Below are positions 44,362-45,044 of a DNA stretch of 64,000 bases, piece by piece. Source of the stretch: Escherichia coli (GTDB lineage: Bacteria > Pseudomonadota > Gammaproteobacteria > Enterobacterales > Enterobacteriaceae); assembly GCF_045037415.1 (NCBI RefSeq), contig NZ_CP173438.1; one strand, written 5' to 3'. Below the pieces are notes generated by a model. The model saw only the letters and a list, made by a program, of their open reading frames with translations, was not told the origin of the DNA and did not search any database. The translations under genes were made by a program, and so were the position numbers. Every line of letters begins with the position of its first letter. Within the stretch, counting starts at the first letter, position 1.

Positions 44362-45044
44362 CAGAAGCGATCCTCTTATGAGATGTAGGGTGACATGGCG
44401 ATGCTCATTTCGTAGCCATAATCTAAAAATATCTACATTTCTGAAAAATGCGCATAAAAGTTACATATTGTTTTCTTATTGTGATCAAAAACAGCAAATT
44501 AATAACAAGTAATGTGAGGGATAAGAATTGGGTTGAAAGGAAATGAATAATTAAAACAATATATTAAGTGTGCTTATACTCTTTTTCGAACTGGTGGCAT
44601 TTGTTTAAATGCTATTTAAACTGCTTTTTCAGAGTTCAACTTACTGAGTTCCGTGTCGACTAATGTGAGTAAGATCAATCGCATCCAACCTATGTTACTT
44701 GATGGCATCGATAACAATATTAATGAACATACAGATTCCGGGAAGGCTGGCTATGGGGGCAAATTATTCTCTTTCTGGAAACGGGTAAATAACAGTGACC
44801 ATTTGTCGAGAAGCTGATACTGAGCTGAGGGATACTGTATATGTCTGGACTGTAATTGGATGAATTCTATTCAGGGCGGGTCAGGACCAATAAAAAAGCC
44901 CGCATCAGCGGGCTTTAATGTCATAGGGAGTCGCGACTCCGTTGCGTATCCTTTTTTGTCTCCTCACCGTCTGGTCGGTGTCCTGCTGAGACTTATAACT
45001 TCCTGTTTTTGTTGGTGTAGTCCTTACACCGTCCAATCATTATT

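Follow-up and report, generated by a model that had tools for sequence, protein, structure and literature searches.

An apparently unoccupied tmRNA-gene integration site 683 bp upstream of glaH in Escherichia coli

That the tmRNA gene ssrA is an integration hotspot is already known and has become textbook knowledge. The tmRNA gene is the most enriched of the tDNA targets (PMC4383910), elements integrated at ssrA are listed in Table 1 of PMC10107115, and the EspC island is located at ssrA as well (PMC7545054). We analyzed a 64,000-nucleotide stretch of E. coli DNA (contig NZ_CP173438.1 of assembly GCF_045037415.1), referred to below as the window, which contains this gene together with glaH, also known as csiD. 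Among the closest described systems is the attB of the cryptic prophage CP4-57 (IntA/AlpA) in E. coli K-12, which involves the same gene, the same 16-nt core and, with 89% identity, the same flank beyond attR. The K-12 site is occupied and its attR lacks T357, whereas the site in the window is empty and T357 is present. Compared with the tDNA hotspots catalogued by Williams and in the Islander database, where the 3' end of the tmRNA gene is, as in the window, the target of several unrelated integrase families, the window is no different in kind and is merely an unoccupied allele. It is an ordinary empty allele of a textbook hotspot and raises no new biological question; its practical value lies in the exact coordinates that it provides for the native ssrA 3' junction, the trailer, the terminator and the att cores.

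According to ARAGORN the window contains one tmRNA gene, located at positions 45045-45407 on the minus strand and encoding the tag peptide ANDENYALAA. The gene matches the Rfam family RF00023 over its full length with 295.8 bits and is identical to K-12 ssrA at 363 of 363 nucleotides, T357 included. It is annotated as ssrA in SK1144, a RefSeq E. coli genome that has the feature coordinates of the window and is 100% identical to it over every stretch compared. The 3' end, ...CCGCCAGCTCCACCA, is intact, with U357 present. Together, ARAGORN, Rfam and the K-12 alignment point to a complete and uninterrupted tmRNA gene whose 3' acceptor end should be functional. On the same strand, positions 43384-44361 hold a 325-aa ORF with an ATG start that is annotated as glaH in the colinear SK1144; its product is glutarate dioxygenase, and the gene is the first of the csiD-lhgO-gabDTP operon.

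The gap between the two genes (44362-45044) measures 683 bp, in agreement with a sequence-only reading of this DNA that had placed csiD about 680 bp from the CCA end of the tmRNA gene. The same reading had claimed that neither an integrase or phage ORF nor any ORF of at least 60 aa lies between them. No integrase or phage ORF is indeed found in the 683-bp gap, and the statement on ORF length is correct for ORFs that lie wholly inside it; it fails for a mechanical 68-aa ORF (44860-45066, plus strand), which begins in the gap and extends 22 nt into ssrA. No integrase or phage gene is annotated in window positions 1-50,000 by the annotation of SK1144, and the remaining 50-64 kb were judged for an integrase solely via the annotation of the syntenic CFT073. 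A 23-mer of the ssrA 3' end, with up to three mismatches allowed, occurs once in the 64 kb and has no second copy, and the sole near-match to a 15-mer of this end lies on the wrong strand, inside glaH. Hence there is neither a displaced 3' fragment nor an integrase downstream of ssrA, and ARAGORN detected no tRNA gene between ssrA and glaH in the window.

In K-12 MG1655 the end of ssrA (2755955) and the start of glaH (2788985) are 33,029 bp apart. The sequence-only reading had placed the CP4-57 integrase and tens of kilobases of accessory DNA before csiD in K-12, which is accurate: intA and CP4-57 follow directly after ssrA, and an ssrA-csiD adjacency like that of the window was looked for in K-12 by alignment and was not found. 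The K-12 order is CP4-57 (2755941-2777971), then ypjA to ygaQ, then glaH. CP4-57 comprises 22,031 bp and sits in the core formed by the final ~16 nt of ssrA, while the second difference is a segment of 10,649 bp (ypjA, pinH', ypjB, ypjC, ileY, ygaQ') against 333 bp in the window. Comparison of the window with the K-12 interval by local BLAST and alignment yields three blocks. Positions 44893-45059, which are the last 15 nt of ssrA and 152 bp of flank, correspond with 89% identity to K-12 psaA, a pseudogene consisting of a 14-nt ssrA remnant at the attR of CP4-57, and to the next 150 bp, as far as the ypjA stop codon. The 333-bp spacer at 44560-44892 has no K-12 counterpart. Positions 44200-44559, comprising 198 bp before csiD and its first 162 nt, correspond to the K-12 csiD upstream region and start, with 92% identity over the whole block.

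On this alignment, two variable segments and not one explain the difference from K-12. The 10.6-kb ypjA-ygaQ segment is unrelated to the att core and takes the place of the 333-bp spacer; the K-12-type interval, with ypjA-pinH-ypjB-ypjC-ileY-ygaQ between terminator and csiD promoter, is not found in the window. Because the element integrated at ssrA accounts for no more than 22 of the 33 kb, removal of CP4-57 from K-12 would not recreate the adjacency seen in the window. Strain D9, which is without CP4-57, resembles the window in having an empty ssrA site with the same native trailer and terminator directly 3' of the gene and no element, but differs from it in that ypjA-pinH'-ypjCB-ileY-ygaQ' (~10.6 kb) precedes glaH, where the window has the 333-bp spacer and no ileY. 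This tRNA-Ile(CAU) gene, which in K-12 is located at 2785762-2785837 within the 10.6-kb segment, is absent from the gap in the window, and spacer-type genomes are therefore without that tRNA copy at this locus. A weak similarity (33/42) between the ssrA 3' end and K-12 ileY was taken as a generic likeness of T-arm and acceptor.

The sequence-only reading had further suggested looking for an att core common to the CP4-57 ends. When the window was compared with K-12 attL and attR by BLAST and alignment, the attB core for CP4-57-type (P4-family integrase) elements mapped to 45044-45059 on the minus strand. The core block, CCGCCAGC(T)CCACCA+A, is common to attL, which is the ssrA end, and attR, which is the psaA pseudogene, and the K-12 attR copy is without the T. 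This missing T is the delta-T357 by which CP4-57 excision inactivates tmRNA (PMC10107115). The window reads CGCCAGCTCCACCA, where a delta-T357 form would read CGCCAGC-CCACCA; since T357 is present, the window is not a K-12-type excision product as defined by the delta-T357 of PMC10107115 Table 1.

Lambdoid prophages and other elements at ssrA duplicate a longer part of the 3' end, of about 23-42 nt, which the attR-side matches place at 45045-45086 on the minus strand. These matches end at 45067 in SCAID URN1, at 45080 in S8, at 45081 in N61 and at 45086 in UTI89. Across E. coli, the displaced fragments reach about 6, 15, 20, 27 and 36-45 nt into ssrA, and such differing depths fit the use of one target by several integrase families. 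The flank of the window equals the sequence that is distal to attR in occupied genomes, as seen in K-12 (psaA and 150 bp), and the attR sides of UTI89 and S8 are 97-99.6% identical to the window.

Close relatives, namely S8, UTI89 and CFT073, carry integrase-bearing elements precisely at this site. In S8, whose GlaH, LhgO, GabD and GabT are identical to those of SK1144, the prophage has a 390-aa site-specific integrase directly beside the flank, and in its attR the junction sequence of the window comes right after an ssrA fragment of ~36 nt. Related prophages occupy ssrA in UTI89 and CFT073; the attR fragment of UTI89 shows a 5-6-nt deletion (CGCCAGC-----CA), which is listed for RS218 (PMC10107115 Table 1). 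The prophages of CFT073 ('Ecoc48X'), UTI89/RS218 ('Eco48X') and S8 sit at exactly the window's site, in genomes with the same spacer and glaH neighbourhood; unlike the window these B2 genomes are occupied, and the integrase lies at the csiD-proximal end. With an intact ssrA, the native attR-distal flank, the core and the occupied relatives, the earlier proposal of an empty attB-type site is supported, and what the window shows is very probably the E. coli tmRNA-gene integration site in its unoccupied state; no observation speaks against this reading. Its anatomy, the homology of the flank, the core and the polymorphism between occupied and unoccupied states are observed here directly and, to judge from the sequence, the site would still be competent for recombination.

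On this explanation, tyrosine-integrase elements, both P4-type ones such as CP4-57 and several lambdoid prophages, use the terminal ~16 to ~42 nt of ssrA for recombination. An integrating element provides the gene with a new 3' end, and the original 3' fragment is carried, together with its flank, to the far end of the element. The window genome shows no such integration, and accordingly lacks an integrase, a duplicated ssrA fragment and accessory DNA alike. That csiD is so near has a second and independent cause, the short spacer allele which this lineage carries between the ssrA terminator and the promoter of csiD.

Just 3' of the tmRNA CCA, at 45038-45044, the window reads AATAATG. The same sequence is present in S8, and genomes that match the window at 100% necessarily have it too, while APEC O2-211, UTI89, D9, K-12 attR, E1V33 and E. 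whittamii have ATCATG at that junction. Could the site once have been occupied, the element excised, and the junction CCACCA|AATAATG left behind as its footprint? The 1-nt insertion and the C-to-A change immediately 3' of the CCA in the window and its 100%-identical relatives would be in keeping with this, as would the fact that prophages do use the ssrA site in the same lineage (S8). However, S8 carries the variant in attR, beyond the displaced fragment on its chromosomal side, which weakens its interpretation as a phage scar: it is ordinary chromosomal sequence that was there before the S8 prophage integrated, and a mutation native to the lineage. Moreover, a K-12-type CP4-57 excision would leave delta-T357, whereas the window has the T, and a point mutation together with a slip in the A run explains AATAATG equally well. 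We therefore regard an excision footprint as unlikely and prefer a native junction variant at an unoccupied site. Precise excision of a prophage of the S8 or CFT073 type would leave no scar, since the displaced 3' end stays intact in these.

The 152 bp beside the ssrA 3' end (44893-45044) are the native trailer and terminator, and their K-12 counterpart is found just past the attR of CP4-57. The native 3' trailer of the ssrA transcript extends on the minus strand from the mature CCA end to the terminator (44917-45044) and is 89% identical to the K-12 sequence beyond attR. D9, E1V33, E. whittamii and CFT073 all retain this trailer, which folds better than shuffled sequences (z = -2.86) and has three conserved hairpins, at 45014-45030, 44965-44980 and 44927-44940 (all minus strand). 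A terminator scan places the intrinsic ssrA terminator at 44889-44916 on the minus strand, or more narrowly at 44895-44916, with the stem AAAGCCCGC/GCGGGCTTT, formed by nine pairs of which six are G-C, and a T run. In K-12 and D9 the terminator shows a compensatory change from G-C to A-U. Among six Escherichia versions, one compensatory pair each was seen in the 44927-44940 hairpin and in the terminator, and these changes, in six sequences, lend modest support to the predicted structure of the trailer. Because ssrA and csiD are co-oriented, the terminator presumably prevents the very strong transcription of ssrA from entering the csiD operon, which is induced by starvation, and may thus shield csiD from read-through.

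At the other end of the gap, positions 44362-44559 (minus strand) form the 5' regulatory region of csiD/glaH, with promoter and leader, and are colinear with K-12. The csiD upstream region gives matches of 74-92% in Citrobacter, Salmonella, Pseudocitrobacter and others, and the 147 bp nearest csiD (44362-44508) are conserved across enterobacterial genera, out to Citrobacter and Salmonella. The ~110 bp before the csiD start codon (44362-44470) are 100% identical to K-12, and identity falls to ~85-90% farther upstream. By this pattern of identity, the leader/promoter stretch 44362-44470 is strongly constrained. [quoted passage not shown]

The 333-bp spacer (44560-44892) between these two conserved flanks is non-coding intergenic DNA that is absent from K-12-type genomes. 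Neither the K-12 interval nor any E. coli genome of the non-spacer type shows a homologue at blastn sensitivity, and homologues are present in E1V33, E. whittamii and L012, which represent three other lineages of Escherichia. The spacer possibly holds distal regulatory sites of csiD. We also considered that it hides an unannotated gene for a small protein or an sRNA, for which one could point to invariant blocks of 20-25 nt across five Escherichia lineages, to weak promoter-like sites at 44533-44580 (plus strand) and to a terminator-like hairpin at 44932-44946 (plus strand). The promoter-like sites are, however, no more frequent than in shuffled sequences (3 vs 2.2), and the spacer indels between lineages, of 1, 2, 11, 12 and 19 nt, are not multiples of three and interrupt the small gap ORFs in other Escherichia. 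A Pfam search with four of the small ORFs, including the 68-aa one, gave nothing significant, two being without any match and the other two having matches below cutoff at chance level (E 0.013-0.038), so that a hidden coding gene in the gap was rejected on these grounds and on the frame-breaking indels. No Rfam family was found in the spacer or the gap above the gathering score; the only match in the gap is a Leu_leader-like one on the terminator, with 23.5 bits and an E-value of 0.1 against a gathering score of 50. A structured RNA on the sense strand of the spacer was likewise rejected, as there is no Rfam family and no covariation: RNAalifold, run on the sense strand only, gave an unfavourable covariation term of +0.84 and compensatory changes in 1 of 71 pairs. 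A hidden gene is thus very unlikely, and we treat the spacer as non-coding.

How old is the short interval? One genome per bacterial species with GlaH was scanned by running ARAGORN on the 10 kb upstream of glaH. A tmRNA gene within this distance was found in just two other species, Escherichia sp. E1V33 and E. whittamii, with ssrA-glaH gaps of 701 bp and 727 bp, respectively. Both intervals (94% identity for E1V33, 89.5% for E. whittamii) are colinear with the window from end to end, spacer included, so the 683-bp interval is old and inherited and did not arise by a recent deletion. A third Escherichia lineage, L012, has kept the spacer, and a fimbrial-like gene is inserted in it immediately past the ssrA terminator position. 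In Citrobacter, Salmonella, Pseudocitrobacter and others, ARAGORN detected no tmRNA gene less than 10 kb from glaH, which makes the ssrA-glaH adjacency specific to Escherichia. The opposite history, in which an ssrA island and the ypjA-ygaQ segment were recently lost together and the 683 bp are the scar of this secondary deletion, could draw on the ~11 kb that separate ssrA from csiD in K-12-type genomes even without CP4-57, and on the ileY/ygaQ-like DNA that E. albertii also has before glaH. Yet no deletion can create a spacer that is without homologue in the K-12 interval or in non-spacer genomes, and the colinearity of the whole interval at 89-94% in two other Escherichia species, the spacer alone in a third lineage and the presence of the spacer in 1,103 genomes all argue against a recent event. 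A deletion scar is accordingly extremely unlikely, and we retain the reading of an inherited short interval.

The point just after the ssrA terminator, around 44885-44893 in the window, is a recurrent breakpoint. The K-12-type 10.6-kb segment starts there, the fimbrial-like gene of L012 (1288-1345) is inserted there, and E. whittamii has a 19-bp tandem duplication at the same place (L011 ~9430-9450). The spacer allele is found in B2-like E. coli, E. whittamii, E1V33 and L012, and the ileY/ygaQ-type allele in other E. coli, E. albertii and MOD1-EC7003. The E. albertii sequence upstream of glaH includes an ileY-like tRNA and, in strongly diverged form (67-75% identity to K-12), a region resembling ygaQ, and Escherichia sp. 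MOD1-EC7003 has a K-12-type right boundary. We tentatively suggest, as a reading that is possible though rather doubtful, that 44885-44893 marks a second, integrase-independent breakpoint with two ancient alleles, both shared across Escherichia species. If this were true, it would mean a trans-species polymorphism, or repeated exchange via the conserved ssrA and csiD flanks, and a copy of the tRNA-Ile(CAU) gene ileY would be present or absent along with the allele.

Occupancy was counted among 5,426 complete E. coli genomes. The exact arrangement of the window, with ssrA, trailer and spacer contiguous, is found in 708 of the 5,426 (about 13%), and 1,385 have an empty ssrA adjoining ypjA, with ssrA, flank and ypjA contiguous. 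The 333-bp spacer is present in 1,103 genomes, of which ~395 are not contiguous at ssrA and carry an element there, S8 among them. Spacer-bearing strains include CFT073, UTI89, UM146, APEC O2-211 and ST131 strains such as 81009, which we take to belong to phylogroup B2. The 10.6-kb allele is that of K-12 and of the 1,385 genomes with an empty ssrA next to ypjA, and probably that of most others. Strictly empty ssrA sites number roughly 2,093 of 5,426 (39%). A count by the junction-spanning sequence had given 2,626 'contiguous' genomes, a figure that is inflated, as a 48-kb CFT073-type prophage follows an intact-looking junction; this junction-only count was replaced by the two context-specific queries (708 and 1,385). 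The CFT073 prophage (L004 19964-20492) brings along an ssrA 3' end of its own, with the terminator and the complete 152-nt trailer, ~96% (95.8%) identical to the native sequence. Because of such trailer copies in prophages, a test that asks only whether the junction is intact misclassifies genomes of this kind as empty, and we caution that it over-counts empty ssrA sites.

The sequence-only reading had proposed the locus as a baseline for defining island boundaries in related genomes. This is valid for spacer-bearing (B2-like) genomes and for some other Escherichia, but it does not extend to K-12-type genomes. Recognizing that the K-12 and B2 arrangements at ssrA-csiD differ by two events and not one helps both in drawing boundaries and in counting occupancy.

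Elsewhere in the window, a two-gene cassette lies between luxS and emrB (17113-18929, minus strand), and is presumably absent from that position in K-12. PADLOC gave no match to the cassette. One of its products, of 370 aa, ends in an AAA_33 P-loop kinase domain at the C terminus (E 8.6e-32), the other is a 235-aa RNA_ligase (PF09414) protein (E 1.2e-27), and together they look like an RNA-repair kinase/ligase pair.
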